Below are positions 8,199 through 15,257 of a stretch of 64,000 nt of DNA, in pieces. This DNA comes from an uncultured Verrucomicrobia subdivision 3 bacterium (GTDB lineage: Bacteria; Verrucomicrobiota; Verrucomicrobiia; Limisphaerales; UBA11358): positions 18,426 through 82,425 of the forward strand of contig CAIRJF010000014.1 in NCBI GenBank assembly GCA_903878805.1, given 5' to 3'. Position 1 is the first letter of the stretch, and each line of letters opens with the position of its first letter. The position numbers and the translations under genes are program-made. The notes beneath the pieces were generated by a model, which did no database searches, was not told where the DNA came from, and saw only the letters and a list, made by a program, of their open reading frames with translations.

Positions 8199-9284
8199 TT
8201 ACCGCGCCGCCGGCGCGGACGCCAAACTTTCCAGTAACTGACATTCTGGACTCCACGACCAAGCGCGAAAGAGCAGGAGGTCGCCCCGGTCGTGGGCGCG
8301 CAAGATTTTATTCGCGTCATCCGCCGCATCGCTGACATCCACCGCCGCAAACGCGCCGCGGAAAAATTTTCTAGCCCAGTCCGCCGCCCGCCCGCCGTCG
8401 TCCCGGCGCAGCGGAATGTAAGGCGTGGTGGACGCCCAGTAGGGCAGGTAGTGATGTTCGGGAATCAGCAGGATGTCCGGCCGCGCCTTCGCCACGCTGC
8501 GCAGTTGCCACACTTCGTCCGGCCGCCGGATGCCGCCCGTAGAATCCACATAAAAAATTGTCGCGCCCCAGCGCTTGCGGGCGTAGTCAATTTTTTCCAG
8601 CAAAGTCTGCCGGACGTTCAGCACCTGCGCCTGATGCGGCTGGCCGTAGTCAAAATCCAGTTGCTGCGGGCGCACGGTCAGGCCGACCTTGAACCCGGCG
8701 TGGCGCAGCCGCGCAAAAAATTCATCCGCCGCCGCATCCATTTCCGGCGCGAGCCGTTCCAGCAAACGCGGGTCGCCGATGTAAGTGGTCTTGTGCGGAT
8801 ACTGTTCGCCCTCAAGATCCCAGACGATGACGCCCTGCGCGCCCGTGCGCTTGAGAATCGCGATGCTGCGGTCGGCGTAATCCACCAGCGCCGCGCGAAA
8901 GCGCTCCGTGCCACCCTTGCCGGTCACATCGAGATTGGAATCATTGAACCAGCCACGCGGATTGGTGGGCGACGCGTATAAGTTTGAGGCGAGAAACAGT
9001 TCGCCCACCGGTCGGCGATCCGGCCAGCGCACGATCACCGGCTGGAAAATCCACGTTCCCAACATGGCTGCCACCAGCGCGAGCATGACGCCGGCGGCGA
9101 CCGCGAGAAATTTTTTCTGCGCAGCGCGGTGGCGTGCTTGCCGCAACGCTTTTTCAATCGGGGAGAATTGCGGAACGGGAACCCGTTTTTTGCAGTGCGG
9201 GCATTTGACCTTGCGACCGCGATCGCTTTCCTCGCACACCAGCACCGTGGCGCAATGCCGGCAAGTGATTTTGATTTTATCCAT
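8199..9284 (-). CDS. Membrane-anchored protein: N-terminal zinc ribbon, one TM segment, C-terminal putative glycoside-hydrolase-like TIM-barrel domain
   Basis: CRHC-x17-CPHC zinc ribbon, TM segment (FLAVAAGVMLALVAAMLGTWIF), then GVIVWDLEGEQYP...IFYVDS...LLIPEH, reminiscent of GHL-type domains. Function not established. Confidence 0.55.
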   Translation of the reverse strand: MDKIKITCRHCATVLVCEESDRGRKVKCPHCKKRVPVPQFSPIEKALRQARHRAAQKKFLAVAAGVMLALVAAMLGTWIFQPVIVRWPDRRPVGELFLASNLYASPTNPRGWFNDSNLDVTGKGGTERFRAALVDYADRSIAILKRTGAQGVIVWDLEGEQYPHKTTYIGDPRLLERLAPEMDAAADEFFARLRHAGFKVGLTVRPQQLDFDYGQPHQAQVLNVRQTLLEKIDYARKRWGATIFYVDSTGGIRRPDEVWQLRSVAKARPDILLIPEHHYLPYWASTTPYIPLRRDDGGRAADWARKFFRGAFAAVDVSDAADDANKILRAHDRGDLLLFRAWSWSPECQLLESLASAPAAR

Positions 9285-9439
9285 GCAATTGCCGCCGGGG
9301 CGCGGCGTTGGCGGGTGAAATCAATTTCCTCATGCGAATGCTGCGTAATTTTTAGAAGCGGGCGTCAAGCGTCAAGCCCTATTATGCCTCGGAGTGACCA
9401 CACGCACCAAAAATTAATTCAGCCCGCAATAGCAACGCT

Positions 9440-9991
9440 TCACTTCGGCGTCTGCACGGTTGGCTCGATGACTTTTTTGTGTTCCAGCTTTTCCAGCTTG
9501 GGCGCGATGACGATCTGGCAGTAGGGCGCGTTGGAATTTTCATCATAGTAGCCCTGATGATAATCCTCGGCGGGATAAAATTTCGTGAATGGCACGATTT
9601 CCGTGACAATCGGGCTGCGGAAATTTTCCTGCGCGGCGAGCTTCGCCTTTTCCGCGAGCAGCCGCTGCTTCTCGTCGTGATACAAAATGATGGAGCGGTA
9701 TTGCGTGCCTTCGTCCGCGCCCTGACGATTGAGCGTGGTCGGGTCGTGCGCCTGCCAGAAAACTTCCAGCAGCTTCGCGTAGGAAATTTTGGCAGGGTCG
9801 AACGTGATTTGCGTGACCTCGGCGTGGCCGGTGTCGCCGCCGCAAACTTCGTGGTAGGTCGGGTTGATGACGTGGCCGCCGGCGAAACCGCTGGTCACGG
9901 AAAGCACGCCGGGCAGCCGTTCATAAACCGCTTCCATGCACCAGAAACAACCGCCGCCGAGCGTGGCGCTCTCAAAAGCATTCGTTTTCAT
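9440..9991 (-). CDS. msrA: Peptide-methionine (S)-S-oxide reductase MsrA; 5' end supplied by the inserted element
   Basis: GGGCFWCMEAVY catalytic motif and GHAEVTQITFDP, YHQGYY. Conservative ATG at 9991 (MKTNAFES...). The frame stays open upstream to 10204, and a hydrophobic leader (VISISLFTSILLTGNA) could be used from a TTG. Confidence 0.85.
   Translation of the reverse strand: MKTNAFESATLGGGCFWCMEAVYERLPGVLSVTSGFAGGHVINPTYHEVCGGDTGHAEVTQITFDPAKISYAKLLEVFWQAHDPTTLNRQGADEGTQYRSIILYHDEKQRLLAEKAKLAAQENFRSPIVTEIVPFTKFYPAEDYHQGYYDENSNAPYCQIVIAPKLEKLEHKKVIEPTVQTPK
9933..9972. repeat. attL-like 40-bp imperfect direct repeat (copy 1) within the msrA 5' coding region
   Basis: ccatgcaccagaaacaaccgccgccgagcgtggcgctctc matches 13611-13650 at 37/40 positions. 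The first 16 nt are identical. Confidence 0.75.
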
Positions 9992-10050
9992 TGTCGTTTG
10001 TGCGTTTCCGGTCAATAGAATCGAGGTGAACAGAGAAATTGAAATAACCA

Positions 10051-10080
10051 ACTCGCGGACTACTCGCGGACTACTCGCCA
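10051..10080. repeat. Tandem 11-bp repeat (actcgcggact x2.7) near the left end of the element
   Basis: actcgcggact/actcgcggact/actcgcca read directly. Position near the att site suggests possible recombinase arm-type sites (speculative). Confidence 0.5.
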
Positions 10081-10203
10081 ACCAGTCGAATTGTGTTCCG
10101 TGGCAACGCGTGGCAACGGCATGAATACGCGGGTTGACAGTTAGTATATTATTGTTGCCGCCATTTATGACACCGCTTCTTAACAAGGTAACAAATGAAT
10201 GCA

Positions 10204-10413
10204 TCAGGATTTGGATTGCAGGGAAGCAATCCTCTGCTCCAGCGCGGCCTTCTCGCGCAAAGCCAGGTTCAAAACTGCCGCGCGGTGATTCTTCCGTATC
10301 GCTTCGTTCACGATCCGCGTCACCTCGCCGCGCTCTTCTATTGAGGCTAAAATTAAAGCAACGTCTTCTTCTGGTTGGAATGTTACTGTTACCCTCTTTC
10401 TCTTATTGTTCAT
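10204..10413 (-). CDS. Ribbon-helix-helix (Arc/CopG/MetJ-like) small DNA-binding protein, paralog 1
   Basis: 69 aa. KRVTVTFQPEEDVALILASIEERGEVTRIVNEAIRKN fits a beta-strand plus two helices. It shares TxTFQP[ED]..VA.IL and I[VI]NEAIR with the divergent ORF at 10538. Confidence 0.6.
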   Translation of the reverse strand: MNNKRKRVTVTFQPEEDVALILASIEERGEVTRIVNEAIRKNHRAAVLNLALREKAALEQRIASLQSKS

Positions 10414-10511
10414 AGACTACAACTACGCACATTGTCTTACACTTGTCAAACACTTGCCATGTTCGGGTTTTACCCCATTGTAATTAAATTAAAAATAGTG
10501 CTTGCAAAAAT

Positions 10512-10529
10512 GTCTTACCAATGTAAGAC
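10512..10529. promoter_or_regulatory. Perfect 7-4-7 palindrome GTCTTAC-caat-GTAAGAC in the RHH-RHH divergent intergenic region (candidate operator)
   Basis: Read directly. A further TGTCTTAC half-site lies at 10433-10440, and an ACACTTG direct repeat at 10439-10445 and 10450-10456 (11-bp spacing). Confidence 0.5.
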
Positions 10530-10537
10530 TGTTGCAG

Positions 10538-10702
10538 ATGACAGCAACCACTCGCTCGAATCCAACTATTACGTTCCAGCCCGACAAGGAAGTCGCGCGG
10601 ATTTTACCAAAGATTCTTAAAAAGCAGGCTCGGCGCGGAGTTAGCTTGCGCGGCTTGAAAGCCAGAATCATCAACGAGGCGATCCGGTTGCAATACTCGT
10701 GA
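10538..10702 (+). CDS. Ribbon-helix-helix small protein, paralog 2
   Basis: MTATTRSNPTITFQPDKEVARILPKILKKQARRGVSLRGLKARIINEAIRLQYS. The ORF is open from 10502, but the ATG at 10538 leaves the palindrome in the leader. Confidence 0.55.
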   Translation: MTATTRSNPTITFQPDKEVARILPKILKKQARRGVSLRGLKARIINEAIRLQYS

Positions 10703-10762
10703 CCGCAATCCCTCAAATTCCAGGTTGCTTGCCGGAGGGCTACACGCTCGATTCGCAACTGA

Positions 10763-11190
10763 CCATTTAACAGTTTGCCATCTGGCACCGGCGCGCTCGT
10801 CAAGTGTCCGCTCGGTGGTTACTCCGTCGCCCGCTACGGCATCGAGATGGACAACCGCATCACCTACATTCAGGGTGTCAACCTCGTCAATGCGAACAGT
10901 CAGAAGGTGTTTTGGTCACCCGCGCCGGACAAAACCCAATGGAGGATTGAAAAAATGAGTTGCAAAAGTATGAAGCAGGACGAAAATGACCAAAATTACA
11001 AAAAAGAGTCCACGCTGGTCGTGGGCAAGAAACCATATGGGAAATCCCGATTGATACCACGCCTAATTATACCGACACGCAGGCGCTGCCCGCCGTGGCG
11101 GCCAAGTGGACTTACAAGGCCATCTTCCGCATGGACGAGGCGCACGCCGGCCTGTGGAGCGCGCCCGTGAGCCTCACCGTGGGGGGCTAG
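10763..11190 (+). pseudogene. Fragmented ORF with FN3-like C-terminal end, no credible start, frame change at an A6 run
   Basis: Frame B (10763-11010) has only a TTG start. After tac-aaa-aaa-g (about 11004-11011) the -1 frame continues as ...WEIPIDTTPNYTDTQALPAVAAKWTYKAIFRMDEAHAGLWSAPVSLTVGG*, an FN3-like terminal strand pattern. Confidence 0.35.
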
Positions 11191-11299
11191 CCCGATAAAA
11201 TTTCCCCGACCAAGCCGGCCGGCAAAAATCATGCGGCCGGTTCAAACAAGGTTCGTGGGGGAAAACAACAACAAACCAAGAAAGCTAAAGTAATAAAAT

Positions 11300-12211
11300 A
11301 TGAAACTTAACACACGTAACTGTATCCTGGTGCTGGCGCTGGCCGCCACACCGTTGCTGGCCTCACCGGTCGAACCGATCAACGGCGTGCTGGTGAGCAG
11401 CAATTCCATCACGATTCCTCACAAGGGAGTTTATAATACTAAAAACAAGGTCACCTTGGGCGGCATCTCGCTGTCCTGGTATCAACTGGGCAATTCCAAC
11501 CTCGTGGCCACCCTACCGCCCGGCCTGCCCGCCGGCACCTATACGCTCCATGTGGGATATGAACGGGGAATTGATTTGGCCCTTGGCGTGCAGGGTGCGC
11601 AAGGTCCGCAGGGCATTCAAGGCATAGCAGGTTTAAATGGCACGAACGGTGTTGACGGTATCAACGGCACGAACGGATTGAACGGTATCGCAGGTTTAAA
11701 TGGCACGAACGGTGTCAATGGCATTGATGGAACGAACGGTGTCTTGGTCAGCAACTTTATCCATGCCTATGCCGTTGGCGCCGAGCAATTGTTGACCAAC
11801 TACTTGATTCAATTCCCGAATTCAGTCGTGAACAGCGGAAATTCGACGAATTGGTCTGCGGATGGACTCAACTTTATCATTCCGGCCACCGGCATCTATG
11901 AAATCAAGTTCATGCTCAACGCCGATGGCAATGATCTGGGCGATTCGGCTCCGACCAATATTGCCGTGGATATTACGGACGCGACCACTCCCTTCGTCAC
12001 CGCCGATGGCGTGGATCAAGGTTACTTCCAGTTCAGCGGCACGCAGACGGGTGCCTTGAGCGGGCAGATCATTGAGCATTGCACGGCGGGCGATAGTATC
12101 TGCATCAAAAACGTCTCCACCGGAGCGTTCTCCATTGGTTCGCTGGTGCCGACCAACGCGCCCAGCGCGACCATCTCGATCACGCAGATCCAATCAATCC
12201 AAGCCAACTAA
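11300..12211 (+). CDS. Secreted collagen-like triple-helix repeat protein: signal peptide, IPT/TIG-like domain, 17 G-X-Y triplets, C1q/TNF-like (BclA C-terminal-type) domain
   Basis: Signal peptide MKLNTRNCILVLALAATPLLA. GVQGAQGPQGIQGIAGLNGTNGVDGINGTNGLNGIAGLNGTNGVNGIDGTNG at 11585-11740. C-terminal ~155 aa with a jelly-roll-like pattern (GIYEIKFML...AGDSICIKN...ATISITQI). Confidence 0.75.
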   Translation: MKLNTRNCILVLALAATPLLASPVEPINGVLVSSNSITIPHKGVYNTKNKVTLGGISLSWYQLGNSNLVATLPPGLPAGTYTLHVGYERGIDLALGVQGAQGPQGIQGIAGLNGTNGVDGINGTNGLNGIAGLNGTNGVNGIDGTNGVLVSNFIHAYAVGAEQLLTNYLIQFPNSVVNSGNSTNWSADGLNFIIPATGIYEIKFMLNADGNDLGDSAPTNIAVDITDATTPFVTADGVDQGYFQFSGTQTGALSGQIIEHCTAGDSICIKNVSTGAFSIGSLVPTNAPSATISITQIQSIQAN

Positions 12212-12244
12212 TCCAACCCGGCTAAACTGAATAATTCAAGTTTA

Positions 12245-12288
12245 ATACGGCGGCACGCGGATTCGTCCGTAGCCGCCGTATTTTTTAT
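12245..12288 (+). terminator. Rho-independent terminator after the collagen-like gene
   Basis: Stem atacggcggc / gccgccgtat (10 bp), 17-nt loop, then a T6 run. Confidence 0.7.
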
Positions 12289-12459
12289 TATGCACGAAGA
12301 AGTTTTTGCCAATTCATTTGAACCGACCACCGGAAAGATTTTCGGCGTGGCGTTGGATCGGTATGCCATCGGGCATGAAATGGCGTTAATCCGTTAACAA
12401 GTCCGAAGGGTGGAAGGTGGCGTTTTGGTTGCTACTGCTCGTGGCTGGAATTTTGATTT

Positions 12460-13541
12460 TCAGCCGATAGCCCAGAACTTCCTAGCCTCCACCTTGGTGA
12501 CCAGCGCCATGTAGTGCTTGCGGAGCATGGCCTCGGATGGCCGAGCGCGGTGGCAACCGTTGAGGCGTCACCGGTGTCAGATAACCAATAGCTCGCACAA
12601 GAATGGCGAGTGCAATCCTGCTTCCAGACTTTCCAGCCGATCGCCGCGCGCAACTTCCCTAAATCATCGCTTCGTATGTTCCGACTGACCGGCAGGGCCA
12701 CGTTGTGTTTTTTGACCGCGAGCAGCCACTTGAACACCATCGGCTTTGGATAGACGACGCGCCGCTGGCGAACCTTCGTCGTTTGCGCCTCGACCCGAAT
12801 CCAGCCTTCTTTGAAATTGATGTCTGCCCATGTCGTCTTTTCCGCTTCCTCCGGGCGCAGGCCGGCGAACGTCGAGAGGACGAACCAGCCGAAGATGCGC
12901 GGATTTACCTGCAACCATTTCAAGGATTGCCTAACCTCGTCCACCGTCATCACGGCGGGACTTGGCCGCGTCACCGTGATGGGCTCAAGACGGCGACACG
13001 GATCCGCCGCCATATAACCTTTACGGACGGCGTAATTGAACAGCGTTGAAAGCCGCCCACGATAGCAGCTTCGCGATATGAGATTCTTCGAGCGCAGATA
13101 CGCATCCACGTCAGCGAGTCCAACTCTTTCAATCGGCATCTTCTCGCGACCGGTAGCGAAGCCGTTCAGAATCCAGCCGAGACAATCAATGTAGCGCTCG
13201 TTCCGGCCCGCGCTTCTCTTTGCGTCCAGCATTTCCTTTATCACTACGTCGAGAGCGAGCGAGCTGACCGGTGATTGCGTCTGCACCTGCAAGAACGCCA
13301 GCACGTCCACACCGCGCCGCTTCGCCTCATTGTGCACCATCACTAATTTCTCCTGCTCGTGTTGCGGGATGGATGCGAGCAACTGGCGAACACCGACCAG
13401 CTCGCCGCGAATCTTTGCTGCATGAGCGTCAGCCGAATCCCTGCTCGTGAAGAATTTGCGGCGCACTTTGCCGGTGTCGTGCCAGCGCACGCGCCAGCGA
13501 GAATCACCGCGAACTTTGCATCTTGAAATGAAAACACTCAT
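12460..13541 (-). pseudogene. Tyrosine recombinase/phage integrase, frameshifted immediately before the catalytic-Tyr segment
   Basis: GLRPEE (Arg), CTRHSCASYW (HxxR box) and ALGH are present. After ...ALGH the annotated frame runs into nonsense and stops at 12432. A shift of one frame at about 12538 gives SEAMLRKHYMALVTKVEARKFWAIG* (12460-12537), the canonical integrase C-terminus with Tyr. Likely start MSVFISRCKV at 13541. Confidence 0.7.
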
Positions 13542-13610
13542 TGCGTGGCAACAAATGTGGCAACGATATTTGACGCATCGAAAGGCCAATGAAACGCGCA
13601 CACAAGTAAT

Positions 13611-13650
13611 CCATGCACCAGAAACATCCGCCGCCCAGCGTGGCGGTCTC
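13611..13650. repeat. attR-like 40-bp imperfect direct repeat (copy 2)
   Basis: ccatgcaccagaaacatccgccgcccagcgtggcggtctc. 37/40 identity to 9933-9972. Confidence 0.75.
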
Positions 13651-13743
13651 GATTTTATTTGTGTTCATAAAATTGTTCGTTTGCGCACTTGCGGCGAAGT
13701 GGATTGCGCCCGCCGCCAGCAAAGTAAGTAAAATTATTTTCAT
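13611..13743 (-). pseudogene. msrA: Displaced original 5' end of msrA (signal peptide + GGGCFWCM), truncated at the repeat
   Basis: MKIILLTLLAAGAIHFAASAQTNNFMNTNKIETATLGGGCFWCM, after which the frame reads into integrase-flanking sequence. Homologous to the N-terminus of the intact msrA at 9933-10050. Confidence 0.7.
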
Positions 13744-13802
13744 CGTCGCAGTTCTTTGACCCTCGCATAGCGAAGGCATTCAATCAAATCGAAATGAAAT
13801 GT

Positions 13803-15257
13803 TCACTCGCGGATGATGGCCGTCAAATCCCAGTTCTTCAGCTTCACCATGTCGAGGCTGCGCACGGCAATGCGCAGGCCGTTCGTGCCCGGCAGGTCGC
13901 CGAGATTTTTCGTCGGCAGCACGAGCATGAACGGCGGCGCGTTGGTAAGAAAATTCTGCGCGGCCTTCATGTCACCCAAAATAATCTGGTTCGTTGCGAC
14001 CTTGCGGAATTCCCAGACGAGGCTCGATTCCGTGTAGCCGAAGCAGCCGATTTTCGTTTCCGGTCGAACGTGCGCTTCCGTCGCAAGCCAGAGTTGTTTC
14101 GTGAGAAAATGATTTTGCGCGAAAGTAAAACCAGCGAATGTCAGCAGTAAAACAAAAATGGTCATTGCGATGATGCGTTTGCTGAACCACGCGAAAGCAT
14201 TGCCTTCATTGGCGATTTGCCGCGCGAACCACAGCGCGATGCAGGGGAACGCGGGCATCGTGTAATGCGGCAGCTTTGTCCGCACCAGCGAGAAGACGCC
14301 AAAAACCAAAATCACCTGCACGAGCAGATACCAGCCGAGGTCATCGCGTTTGCGTTCCGGCCACCAGCGACGCAACGCCGACGGCACGCGCGTTGACCAC
14401 GGGAAAAAGCTGACGAAAAAAGTCGCGAAATACAACGGCACGAGCGCGAGGAAACCCAGCGTGCCTTTCATGCCGTGACTGTCAATCACGCTGACCGAGC
14501 GATTCAGGACATGCTCGCCGAGGCCGACCTTGAGGAACGCATTGTTCGTCTGCGCCATCGCCGGCAAACCCCACACGGCCACCAGCACGACGGTAAGCGT
14601 GAGGCCAAGAATGGTTTCCAGCAACGGCAGACGGAACGAATTTTTCCGCAACGCCCGGCCAAGCAAAATTCCGCCAAGCGGCAGCCACGCAATCGGGCCT
14701 TTCGTCAGAAATCCCAGCGCAAGCGCGACGTAAAAAATCCACCACCAAAAGCGGCGGCGCGCTTGTTCGGGGCGCGTCAGTTCCCAGCCGCTCCACACGG
14801 CGAGCGTGCAGAAAAAAACCAGCGCCATGTCCGCCGTCGCCAAGCGTCCGATGATGGCGACGTGCAACCCGGCCACGAATATTGCACCCGCAATCAAAGC
14901 CGTTTTGTTGTCGCCGGTAATTTTTTTGCCCCAGCGCACGAGCAGCAGCGCGGTTCCCGTCGTGAACAGCACCGAGGGCAGACGCGCGCCGAACGGATTG
15001 TCGCCAAAAACTTGGTAGCTGGCGATCTGGCACCAGTAAATCAGCGCCGGTTTGTCGAGCCGCCACGCGCCGTTGAACCACGGCACAACATAGTCGCCGC
15101 GCTGCATCATCTCGCGCGAGGCCTCGCCGAAACGCGCCTCGTCGCGGTCGGTCAGCGGCAGAATCCAGTTGCCCGCGAGCAGCAGCGCGAGCGAAAAAAG
15201 CACAATGGCGGTTTGTGGGCGCGCGGCAATTTTTTCAAACCAAGATGACATAGCCAT
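13803..15257 (-). CDS. ArnT/PMT-like membrane glycosyltransferase (GT39/GT83-type, 4-amino-4-deoxy-L-arabinose transferase-like)
   Basis: 484 aa and polytopic. N-terminal LTDRDEARFGEASREMMQRGDYVVPWFNGAWRLDKPALIYW is the hallmark of this family. Confidence 0.8.
   Translation of the reverse strand: MAMSSWFEKIAARPQTAIVLFSLALLLAGNWILPLTDRDEARFGEASREMMQRGDYVVPWFNGAWRLDKPALIYWCQIASYQVFGDNPFGARLPSVLFTTGTALLLVRWGKKITGDNKTALIAGAIFVAGLHVAIIGRLATADMALVFFCTLAVWSGWELTRPEQARRRFWWWIFYVALALGFLTKGPIAWLPLGGILLGRALRKNSFRLPLLETILGLTLTVVLVAVWGLPAMAQTNNAFLKVGLGEHVLNRSVSVIDSHGMKGTLGFLALVPLYFATFFVSFFPWSTRVPSALRRWWPERKRDDLGWYLLVQVILVFGVFSLVRTKLPHYTMPAFPCIALWFARQIANEGNAFAWFSKRIIAMTIFVLLLTFAGFTFAQNHFLTKQLWLATEAHVRPETKIGCFGYTESSLVWEFRKVATNQIILGDMKAAQNFLTNAPPFMLVLPTKNLGDLPGTNGLRIAVRSLDMVKLKNWDLTAIIRE

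Follow-up and report, generated by a model that had tools for sequence, protein, structure and literature searches.

Elements of the SXT/R391 family are large self-transmissible integrative and conjugative elements (ICEs), about 100 kb in size, and Hochhut and Waldor reportedly found in 1999 that SXT supplies a new 5′ coding end and promoter to prfC, which stays functional. There, in the 5′ end of a conserved protein-coding gene, recombination by a tyrosine integrase takes place between attachment sites of the element (attP) and the host (attB) that are almost the same (PMC2791158, citing Hochhut and Waldor 1999). Integrative genetic elements (IGEs) typically preserve target function by means of a target fragment carried in attP, in protein-coding genes as well as in tRNA genes (Mageeney et al. 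2020, PMC7192596); in excerpts of the supplements to that paper, msrA is represented only by an intergenic site, Response_reg|msrAB, in S. pyogenes. The prophage PhiM247 (siphovirus) of Lactobacillus crispatus has an attB/attL that includes the first 96 nt of msrA; its 138-bp attP is a copy that has diverged from attB by 15 substitutions and 1 indel, and the excised circle and the restored attB were both measured (PMC10763512). Here, a 64,000-nt stretch of DNA (the window; contig CAIRJF010000014.1 of assembly GCA_903878805.1, positions 18,426 to 82,425) from an uncultured Verrucomicrobia subdivision 3 bacterium was analysed, and an integrase-bearing element of 3,677 bp was found inserted in the 5′ end of its msrA gene.

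With a probability of roughly 90%, we regard this insert as a site-specific integrative element in the 5′ end of a secreted-type msrA and as a reduced relative of temperate-phage-like elements of freshwater Verrucomicrobiota. The assignment of the host to Verrucomicrobiota follows the source names given for the nearest homologues of its MsrA and integrase. The original prediction, drawn from the letters of the window alone, had proposed an integrase element that entered the 5′ end of msrA and rebuilt the gene. An empty site, a second host lineage and free attP sites support that proposal. The element had also been described as a miniature integrase-bearing element; this description holds with the amendment that it is a reduced relative of msrA-targeting phage-like elements and no free-standing novelty.

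Empty site and boundaries of the element

A virtual empty-site protein was obtained by fusing window positions 13743..13610 to 9932..9440 and was searched against the protein collection. The top match, a 208-aa MsrA (P0001), was 100% identical over its full length and is thus the predicted native MsrA. The empty-site contig that encodes it (L004; ENA ERZ18625689, BUCK21-1_SAMEA6872774 scaffold_36131, 1943 nt), from a sample series that presumably represents stratified freshwater-lake metagenomes, carries the 3′ end of a PMT-like gene, msrA without interruption, and the gene that follows. It equals window positions 14040..13610 joined to 9932..8421 at 1942 of 1943 nt, with one mismatch and a single copy of the core. 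The mismatch lies in the 431-nt segment 14040..13610, and a 1553-nt stretch (9973..8421) is 99.7% identical. Based on this match, the element is exactly 3,677 bp long (9933/9950 to 13609/13626) and polymorphic within an almost clonal population. Uninterrupted msrA genes, which had been expected in related genomes or metagenomes, were found in L004 and also in the farther relatives L005, L006 and L007 (MsrA 88% identical); in L005 and L006 msrA lies directly downstream of the same PMT-like gene, and L007 is a short contig.

The element and both junctions are covered at 100% identity by the independent assemblies L001 (24000..11021), L051 (11191..9960) and L049 (10946..7349), so an assembly artefact is excluded. 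The following features make up the junctions and the parts of msrA (window coordinates).

9440..9932, minus strand: host-derived msrA body, native codon E44 to stop (PF01625 PMSR, E = 1.2e-64)
9933..9949, unstranded: attL core, 17 bp, same as the attR core, on codons for C-F-W-C-M-(E)
9950..10081, minus strand: element-borne mimic of the msrA 5′ end (leader), encoding ...(L)ASSPRVVRELVISISLFTSILLTGNAQTTMKTNAFESATLGGG, collinear with the attP leaders of contigs L046, L062 and L063
10100..10117, minus strand: pair of 8-bp repeats GTTGCCAC (integrase orientation) on the arm distal to the integrase gene (int), candidate arm-type sites
13545..13564, minus strand: another pair of GTTGCCAC repeats, whose end lies 3 nt ahead of the integrase ATG; candidate int-proximal arm-type sites
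13610..13626, unstranded: attR core, 17 bp, located by repeat search and by the identity switch in the second lineage
13627..13743, minus strand: orphaned native msrA 5′ end, reading MKIILLTLLAAGAIHFAASAQTNNFMNTNKIETATLGGGCFWCM through the core and matching L004

Both msrA parts had been recognised in the original prediction, and both stand: the complete body left of the first repeat has the PMSR domain, and the orphaned 5′ end right of the second repeat lies within the 431 nt that agree with the empty-site contig but for one mismatch.

The 16-mer CCATGCACCAGAAACA occurs in two exact copies in the window (9934-9949 and 13611-13626), and shuffled sequences would give 0.04. The prediction of an identical 16-nt core was therefore close to the mark, the full identical block being 17 nt long (TCCATGCACCAGAAACA, at 9933-9949 and 13610-13626; TGTTTCTGGTGCATGGA in gene orientation). 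Two 40-bp repeats with 37/40 identity had also been given; this value is obtained only when 9933-9972 is compared with 13610-13649, so the second interval, previously 13611-13650, was one base off. A repeat search extended the pair to 59 nt at 83% identity and a spacing of 3677 nt, and pairwise alignment with MAFFT showed homology about 110 nt long, at about 70%, on the msrA-upstream side. On the minus strand, both copies encode ...ATLGGGCFWCM; past the second copy, the sequence bears no relation to msrA. The core was identical in 4/4 related msrA loci compared at the DNA level (L002, L005-L007), as would be expected from the strong protein-level constraint on the motif of the catalytic Cys. 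The direct-repeat cores thus lie at both ends of the element, and the integrase gene starts (13541) 68 nt from the attR core.

Several metagenome contigs end close to the cores: L002 at exactly 13610, L052 and L054 at 9935, and L050 and L051 at 9960. Several contigs also break between 10946 and 11050. Such ends are suggestive of population heterogeneity, with occupied, empty and differently hosted junctions branching the assembly graph.

Insertion in a second host lineage

The same site is occupied in a second host lineage, with identity rising from 77% to 100% at the core; a search for the element at msrA in other genomes had been among the checks suggested with the original prediction. In contigs L008 (ENA ERZ27313614) and L009 (ERZ27313613), the PMT-like gene is 85%, the PMT-msrA intergenic region 60% and the orphaned msrA 5′ end 77% identical to the window. 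Starting with the first core base, a stretch of 1157 nt that comprises spacer and integrase has 100% identity except for one indel, and 99-100% identity persists through a hairpin and the C-terminal half of a collagen-like gene to about position 11870, beyond which it drops to 69-89% in the collagen repeat and the N-terminal part. The sharp switch at the core argues for site-specific integration and not for homologous exchange mediated by the flanks. By these comparisons, integration was recent, independent and site-specific. The mosaic collagen-like gene indicates that copies of the element recombine with one another. An empty site of the second lineage was absent among the 39 MsrA homologues inspected.

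Phage-like relatives and their attP sites

The nearest integrases, P0123 (73% identity), P0122 (70%) and P0124 (64%), are encoded in phage-like contigs from the same lake-metagenome project; by contig, the identity is 70% in L046-L048, 73% in L062 and 64% in L063. The L046-L048 contigs are up to 43 kb long; besides a second integrase gene and very large open reading frames (ORFs) convergent with int, they contain genes for a DnaB-like helicase (phrog_19, E = 1e-96) and for a protein resembling exonuclease VIII (phrog_412, E = 6e-64). L062 and L063 are shorter and similar to them. Neither capsid nor terminase genes were seen in the portions of L046-L048, L062 and L063 that were retrieved, so "phage-like" is the safe description. 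The second recombinase of L046 (L046:3043-4002) is XerC/D-like, has 319 aa, and contains Phage_int_SAM_4 and Phage_integrase domains.

In L046, L062 and L063, a short ORF located 80-140 nt upstream of int imitates the msrA 5′ end, and its likeness to msrA stops right after the core. The leader of L063 reads MKLTILLIMLAINAESADLTNQTERAYFGGGCFWCM and has the exact 17-mer core; those of L062 (...VVRQWALSISVFALISLAVNAQNTNSIMKTELADFGGGCFWCM) and L046 (...GNAQTTNSIMQTERAYLGGGCFWCL) have the cores TGCTTCTGGTGCATGGT and TGCTTCTGGTGCCTAGA, respectively. These leaders with their cores are free attP sites. The original prediction that the element brings its own diverged msrA 5′ end is borne out here, such a leader and core being directly seen just upstream of int in three non-integrated contigs. 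The order is the same in all three: paired repeats, an msrA-like leader ending in GGGCFWC(M/L), the core, paired repeats, and int. One pair of 8-mers lies about 150 nt before the core, and the other ends 3 nt before the start of int; L046 has GCTGCCA. The attP predicted for the window element is GAGAGCGCCACGCTCGGCGGCGGT-TGTTTCTGGTGCATGGA-TTACTTGTGTGCG, and the virtual attP (10140..9933 plus 13609..13530) is collinear with these three sites. Outside int and attP, the element had nothing in common with the L046, L062 and L063 contigs. In the window, GTGGCAAC occurs in 9 copies compared with 2.8 expected, and 4 of the 9 fall within the two repeat pairs. The 8-mer pairs are putative arm-type binding sites of the integrase (Int).

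More distant relatives of the integrase behave differently. At 35 GTDB loci, mostly in metagenome-assembled genomes (MAGs) of Verrucomicrobiota with few from other phyla, integrases at no more than 59% identity were found; neither msrA nor a GCFWC-encoding motif was near any of them (0/35), and msrA was also missing from 16 IMG/VR loci. A tRNA gene lies 150-340 nt from the integrase gene in 11 of the 15 closest GTDB relatives scanned (nine tRNA-Val, one Glu and one Gly). JGI relatives have tRNA fragments just upstream of int at several loci, and in IMG/VR a whole tRNA gene lies by int at two. The tRNA-adjacent homologues, from GTDB MAGs and some IMG/VR viral contigs, are 38-52% identical to the window integrase. 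Among deposited phage genomes, only Akkermansia phage integrases matched, at about 27% identity. The possibility that the whole integrase family targets msrA was ruled out, as distant relatives sit by tRNA genes with no msrA nearby; msrA targeting is consequently a derived specificity of one subclade, with at least 64% identity.

The tRNA-Val genes lie on the minus strand at about 155-260 nt from int in L013-L018 and L021 and on the plus strand at about 155-210 nt in L020, L024 and L025. The family may use either end of the tRNA gene.

Integrase gene and its frameshift

The integrase gene has the following position:

12460..13541, minus strand: tyrosine integrase gene (phrog_1 integrase, E = 1.9e-23), with a 1-nt deletion in the window copy

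The match to phrog_1 "integrase" covers residues 29-355. NCBIfam XerC/XerD models matched at E values of about 1e-8, under their curated cut-offs, as expected for a non-Xer integrase. Pfam PF00589 scored 23.5 bits on the frameshifted ORF (cut-off, 27.1), and most homologues carry a precomputed PF00589 assignment. A sequence search of PDB with the integrase gave no match. In an alignment of 28 integrases, R229, K256 and R312 were invariant, and H335 and Y344 were conserved in at least 90%; the residue three positions before R312 is an invariant Asp, not His. These features place the gene in the tyrosine recombinase family, and the window copy is predicted to be inactive.

Three-frame translation showed that the frame shifts directly after ...ATALGH, the expected C-terminus SEAMLRKHYMALVTKVEARKFWAIG* being found in another frame. 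Alignment with L008, L009 and L010 located the cause: the window gene lacks one C between 12538 and 12537 (CA[C]TCC, minus strand), just past LGH335. As sequenced, the ORF continues to 12432, and the true stop codon is 12462-12460. When repaired in silico, the product is 100% identical to an existing 360-aa protein, P0121. Catalytic Y344 is out of frame in the window copy, and all catalytic residues are in frame in intact P0121. The integrase that had been placed next to the right repeat in the original prediction is thus present, with the correction that its ORF is frameshifted.

On at least 10 contigs from several assemblies, one of them 108,939 nt long, the frameshifted protein is recorded, either with 369 aa or, where a later start is taken, with 302 aa; intact P0121 is on 5 short contigs. 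From this distribution the defect is real, young and dominant in the strain of the window. A programmed frameshift or a sequencing error is unlikely, given that the same product occurs on at least 10 contigs and that the intact allele differs by one C. Since the deletion removes Y344, the window copy is most likely stranded; it could probably move only with Int provided in trans, from intact copies or from related phages such as are present elsewhere among the samples of that lake project. In its sequenced state it acts as a cis-mobilisable element that has only just been disabled.

Other genes of the element

Between the leader and the integrase gene, the following features were identified.

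10204..10413, minus strand: small ribbon-helix-helix (RHH)-like ORF 1, 69 aa, directed toward the leader and msrA (RHH_6, E = 0.053)
10414..10537, unstranded: putative control region of 124 bp separating the divergent RHH-like genes; copies of GTCTTAC at 10434 and 10512, inverted copy GTAAGAC at 10523
10538..10702, plus strand: small RHH-like ORF 2, 54 aa from ATG (66 aa from the upstream TTG 10502)
10775..11190, plus strand: chimeric, frame-broken ORF with a joint near 11050, seen by three-frame translation
11300..12211, plus strand: collagen-like cargo gene, 303 aa (PF01391, E = 3.9e-10), Gly-X-Y repeats at residues 96-147
12246..12285, unstranded: GC-rich hairpin and subsequent T-run lying where the collagen-like and integrase genes converge; by direct reading, a candidate bidirectional terminator

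The protein of RHH-like ORF 1 was found unchanged on 9 contigs. ORF 2 had no significant family match in Pfam, PHROGs or NCBIfam, and the two are paralogous (43% identity, E = 6.6e-6). The pair probably encodes a regulator and/or directionality factor. The region between them is AT-rich, its GTCTTAC/GTAAGAC motifs are candidate operators, and it resembles an operator/promoter switch.

The left part of the frame-broken ORF ends naturally (...KKPYGKSRVK*) in a variant contig, L050 (ENA ERZ27313162), and the right part, with the end ...WSAPVSLTVGG*, is left over from the C-terminal portion of a different gene. What had been called a broken FN3-like ORF is indeed frame-broken; it is better described as a joint near 11050 that stems from recombination or deletion. 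Over 9960-11050, L050 has 100% identity to the window; past 11050 it is unrelated. Sharing the RHH pair and the left ORF and continuing in other sequence, it indicates that other cargo variants circulate. Its divergent 420 nt (L050:1-420), which include a strong hairpin followed by a T-run, matched no retrieved locus.

The collagen-like protein has a signal-peptide-like N-terminus, as read by eye, and a C-terminal domain that is weakly BclA-like (BclA_C, E = 0.0015; BclA structure PDB 1wck, E = 0.002). Its NCBIfam matches are collagen-like adhesins, and its PHROG "tail fibre" matches fall on the repeat region (residues ~95-148). The N-terminal half is mosaic between copies of the element. It is probably a secreted or surface protein carried as cargo.

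Searches of the five element ORFs against Pfam, PHROGs and NCBIfam revealed no terminase, capsid, portal or replication gene, and no transfer gene was found with Pfam and PHROGs. The earlier statement that the element has no replication, packaging or transfer genes agrees with these scans. Its gene list (integrase, two small RHH-like ORFs, broken ORF and collagen-like gene) was also recovered, with a weak RHH match and a frameshifted integrase. A simple terminator scan did not report the hairpin at 12246..12285, and scanning for promoter and terminator consensus sequences gave counts no higher than expected from shuffles, with nothing for the promoters of hybrid msrA or int. Rfam matches on the element and variant L050 were at chance level only.

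Hybrid msrA gene and proposed integration mechanism

In the window, codons 1-43 of msrA come from the leader, and the remainder of the PMSR domain comes from the host part; the hybrid ORF runs across leader, core and body and has an intact PMSR domain. The orphaned msrA ORF now extends into element DNA to 13504, overlapping the start of the integrase gene.

Recombination took place inside the 17-bp block on the codons for C-F-W-C-M-(E/D). In the proposed mechanism, the tyrosine integrase recombines this core, which is common to attP and attB. Upstream of the core, attP carries a diverged msrA 5′ end, consisting of a signal-peptide-like segment and ...ATLGGGCFWCM, and paired GTTGCCAC repeats lie on both arms. 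On integration the leader becomes the new 5′ end of msrA, by which the PMSR domain is kept intact. The native msrA 5′ end and promoter would remain upstream of int and would now be read into it (ATG 13541; orphan ORF 13743..13504). The hybrid msrA may be transcribed from the side of RHH-like ORF 1, which is co-oriented with the leader and has the 124-bp divergent region upstream. In this scheme, the core motif of msrA takes the role that conserved tRNA sequence has for the tRNA-targeting relatives. The hybrid MsrA is presumably expressed and functional.

Candidate starts of the leader are ATG 9991, TTG 10051 and TTG 10081. Gene callers report a 183-aa MsrA from ATG 9991, the leaderless form. 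Every native MsrA relative inspected at full length has a signal-peptide-like N-terminus. The leader of L063 has an ATG-initiated signal-peptide-like segment, and those of L046 and L062 have a plausible GTG start (MRQW...); the matching codon in the window leader is GTC.

The window leader also contains an 11-nt tandem duplication (GAGTAGTCCGC twice; 10055-10080, minus strand) that is single in L062 and L046. It coincides with the loss of the GTG start candidate of the signal-peptide-like segment. In nearly all full-length MsrA relatives, an internal Met follows right after this segment (...MNTNKIETATLGGG), and callers sometimes start there (183 aa); it may be a second, leaderless start. Two members of the 90% cluster of the empty-site MsrA, P0246 (L064) and P0252 (L065), have typical bodies and N-termini unrelated to ...MNTNKIETATL up to GGGCFWCM. 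No arm repeats were seen near these two msrA genes, whose contigs are very short. They might be msrA genes rebuilt by other elements. Downstream of msrA in the window, a minus-strand gene (8199-9284) encodes 361 aa; the protein has one hydrophobic segment and, at its N-terminus, a CxxC...CxxC motif resembling a zinc ribbon, and it gave no significant family match.

Weighing of the evidence and alternative explanations

Several results weigh against a mobile 3,677-bp element that rebuilds msrA. When JGI metagenome contigs were scanned for exact DNA copies of the predicted attP junction, there were 0 matches, an IMG/VR scan with the core and int side also gave 0, and a protein search with the ORF spanning the virtual attP returned only the attR orphan ORF P0241. 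As no attP junction was found in these collections, excision of this element is putative. In the second lineage, no msrA body was recovered with the left half (RHH pair and leader) attached to it, and for this reason we infer, rather than observe, that the 3.7-kb unit moved as one piece. The window leader has no ATG or GTG before the hydrophobic segment, only TTG 10051/10081, which makes export of the hybrid MsrA uncertain. The RHH assignment is weak (E = 0.053 to RHH_6 of Pfam, for ORF 1). Composition likewise adds little, and comparative evidence carries the case. The element has a GC content of 0.534 (0.517 in the cargo part and 0.574 in int), and the host mean is 0.563; among 114 host windows of equal size, 23 have a GC content as low or lower, and its tetranucleotide distance ranks 12th of 114. 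It is no outlier, and the description of visibly AT-richer DNA is weak.

Decay in situ is the alternative that survives best: a full-size msrA-targeting phage would have been whittled down to 3.7 kb in the chromosome without ever having moved as a 3.7-kb unit. The nearest integrase relatives do lie in phage-like contigs of 5.8 to 43 kb, and the frameshifted integrase, the lack of replication, packaging and transfer genes, and the deletion- or recombination-like joint at about 11050 in the broken ORF, where L050 diverges exactly, would all suit such a history. The block from int through the terminator to the C-terminal part of the collagen-like gene (about 1.74 kb) is, however, 99-100% identical in a lineage with flanks of 77-85%, from which it follows that at least the compact right half was already in place at the last move. 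A near-isogenic empty site (1 mismatch in 1943 nt) further argues for a very recent insertion, leaving little time for stepwise decay, and the signal-peptide-like N-terminus of the collagen-like protein suits cargo better than a tail-fibre remnant. Stepwise decay in place is therefore possible, and we think it rather doubtful.

The element could instead be a satellite or cis-mobilisable mini-element made up of att sites, int, regulators and one cargo gene, relying on msrA-targeting helper phages, also for Int where its own is frameshifted. Such dependence would agree with the attP architecture and the 64-73% identical integrases that are common to the element and the phage-like contigs of the same lake project, with the origin of L046 and the element contig L051 from one assembly (ERZ18628823), with the spread to two host lineages, and with the mosaic cargo, which suggests recombination among circulating copies. 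Yet no packaging signal, no capsid-redirecting gene and no likeness to phages outside int and attP were found, and no such element was seen in IMG/VR viral contigs. An integrase identity of 70% is perhaps too low for cross-recognition of arm sites, L046 having GCTGCCA and not GTTGCCA. We consider a helper-dependent life unlikely.

A bolder version, also improbable in our estimate, would make the element a true minimal satellite-like hitchhiker whose integration does more than preserve msrA, by placing int under the msrA promoter and swapping the signal peptide of MsrA. If so, such control of int by the promoter of the host gene could link excision to oxidative stress, and the lost GTG start could relocate MsrA from the periplasm to the cytoplasm, a lysogenic conversion of oxidative-damage repair.

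That there was no insertion at all, the interval being native genes enclosed by a local duplication of the msrA 5′ end or an assembly artefact, has a negligible chance: its composition within the host range would allow this, and it is already refuted by the empty-site contig at 1942/1943 nt and by the same insert in a diverged host, where identity changes sharply at the core, the junctions moreover being reproduced in independent Logan and ENA assemblies.

Significance and comparison with known systems

The site-specific integrative element in msrA provides an unusually complete metagenome-derived case of an integrase lineage leaving tRNA targets for a protein-coding gene. The switch works by placing the core on the DNA of the invariant GCFWCM motif and by carrying in attP a surrogate 5′ end with a signal-peptide-like segment. 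The presence in one lake project of the empty site, the occupied site, and intact and frameshifted integrase genes gives a population snapshot of the birth and death of small mobile elements. In practical terms, a defined set of attB, attP and Int becomes available for Verrucomicrobiota, a poorly sampled phylum with few genetic tools, and a family of temperate Verrucomicrobial phages, themselves uncultured, gains a marker.

The tRNA-targeting Verrucomicrobial integrases belong to the same protein family as that of the window, but have no msrA or GCFWC-encoding leader nearby. Because structural and replication genes are absent, the element is not a prophage; none of the structural, packaging or replication genes that define one lies inside the att interval. 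Nor is it an ICE. It can be likened to CIME-type elements (cis-mobilisable elements) and other defective elements, in that the window copy keeps both att sites with the catalytic Tyr out of frame. The difference is that its defect is a single-base deletion and that the intact allele circulates, so it is very young and not a member of a stable class.

What the window element has in common with SXT/R391 is only the principle by which the target receives another 5′ end. Those elements are from Gammaproteobacteria and have conjugation genes and Xis; the window element has no transfer genes and its target is msrA, not prfC, and it does not belong to that family. The closest likeness is to PhiM247, which has the same target gene, the same gene end, and long diverged homology in attP. 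As the attB of that prophage covers the first 96 nt of msrA (PMC10763512), msrA is not the unrecognised integration target that it had been taken for. PhiM247 is, on the other hand, a full-size prophage in a Firmicute, whereas the window element is 3.7 kb long, resides in Verrucomicrobiota, and uses a 17-bp core on the GCFWCM codons. The description of target-restoring IGEs (PMC7192596) fits the window element exactly. The 5′-end replacement logic and msrA targeting were thus known already, and the understanding of integrative elements is unchanged; new are the host phylum and phage lineage, the position of the core on the codons of the catalytic motif, the switch from tRNA to msrA within one integrase family, and the very small size.

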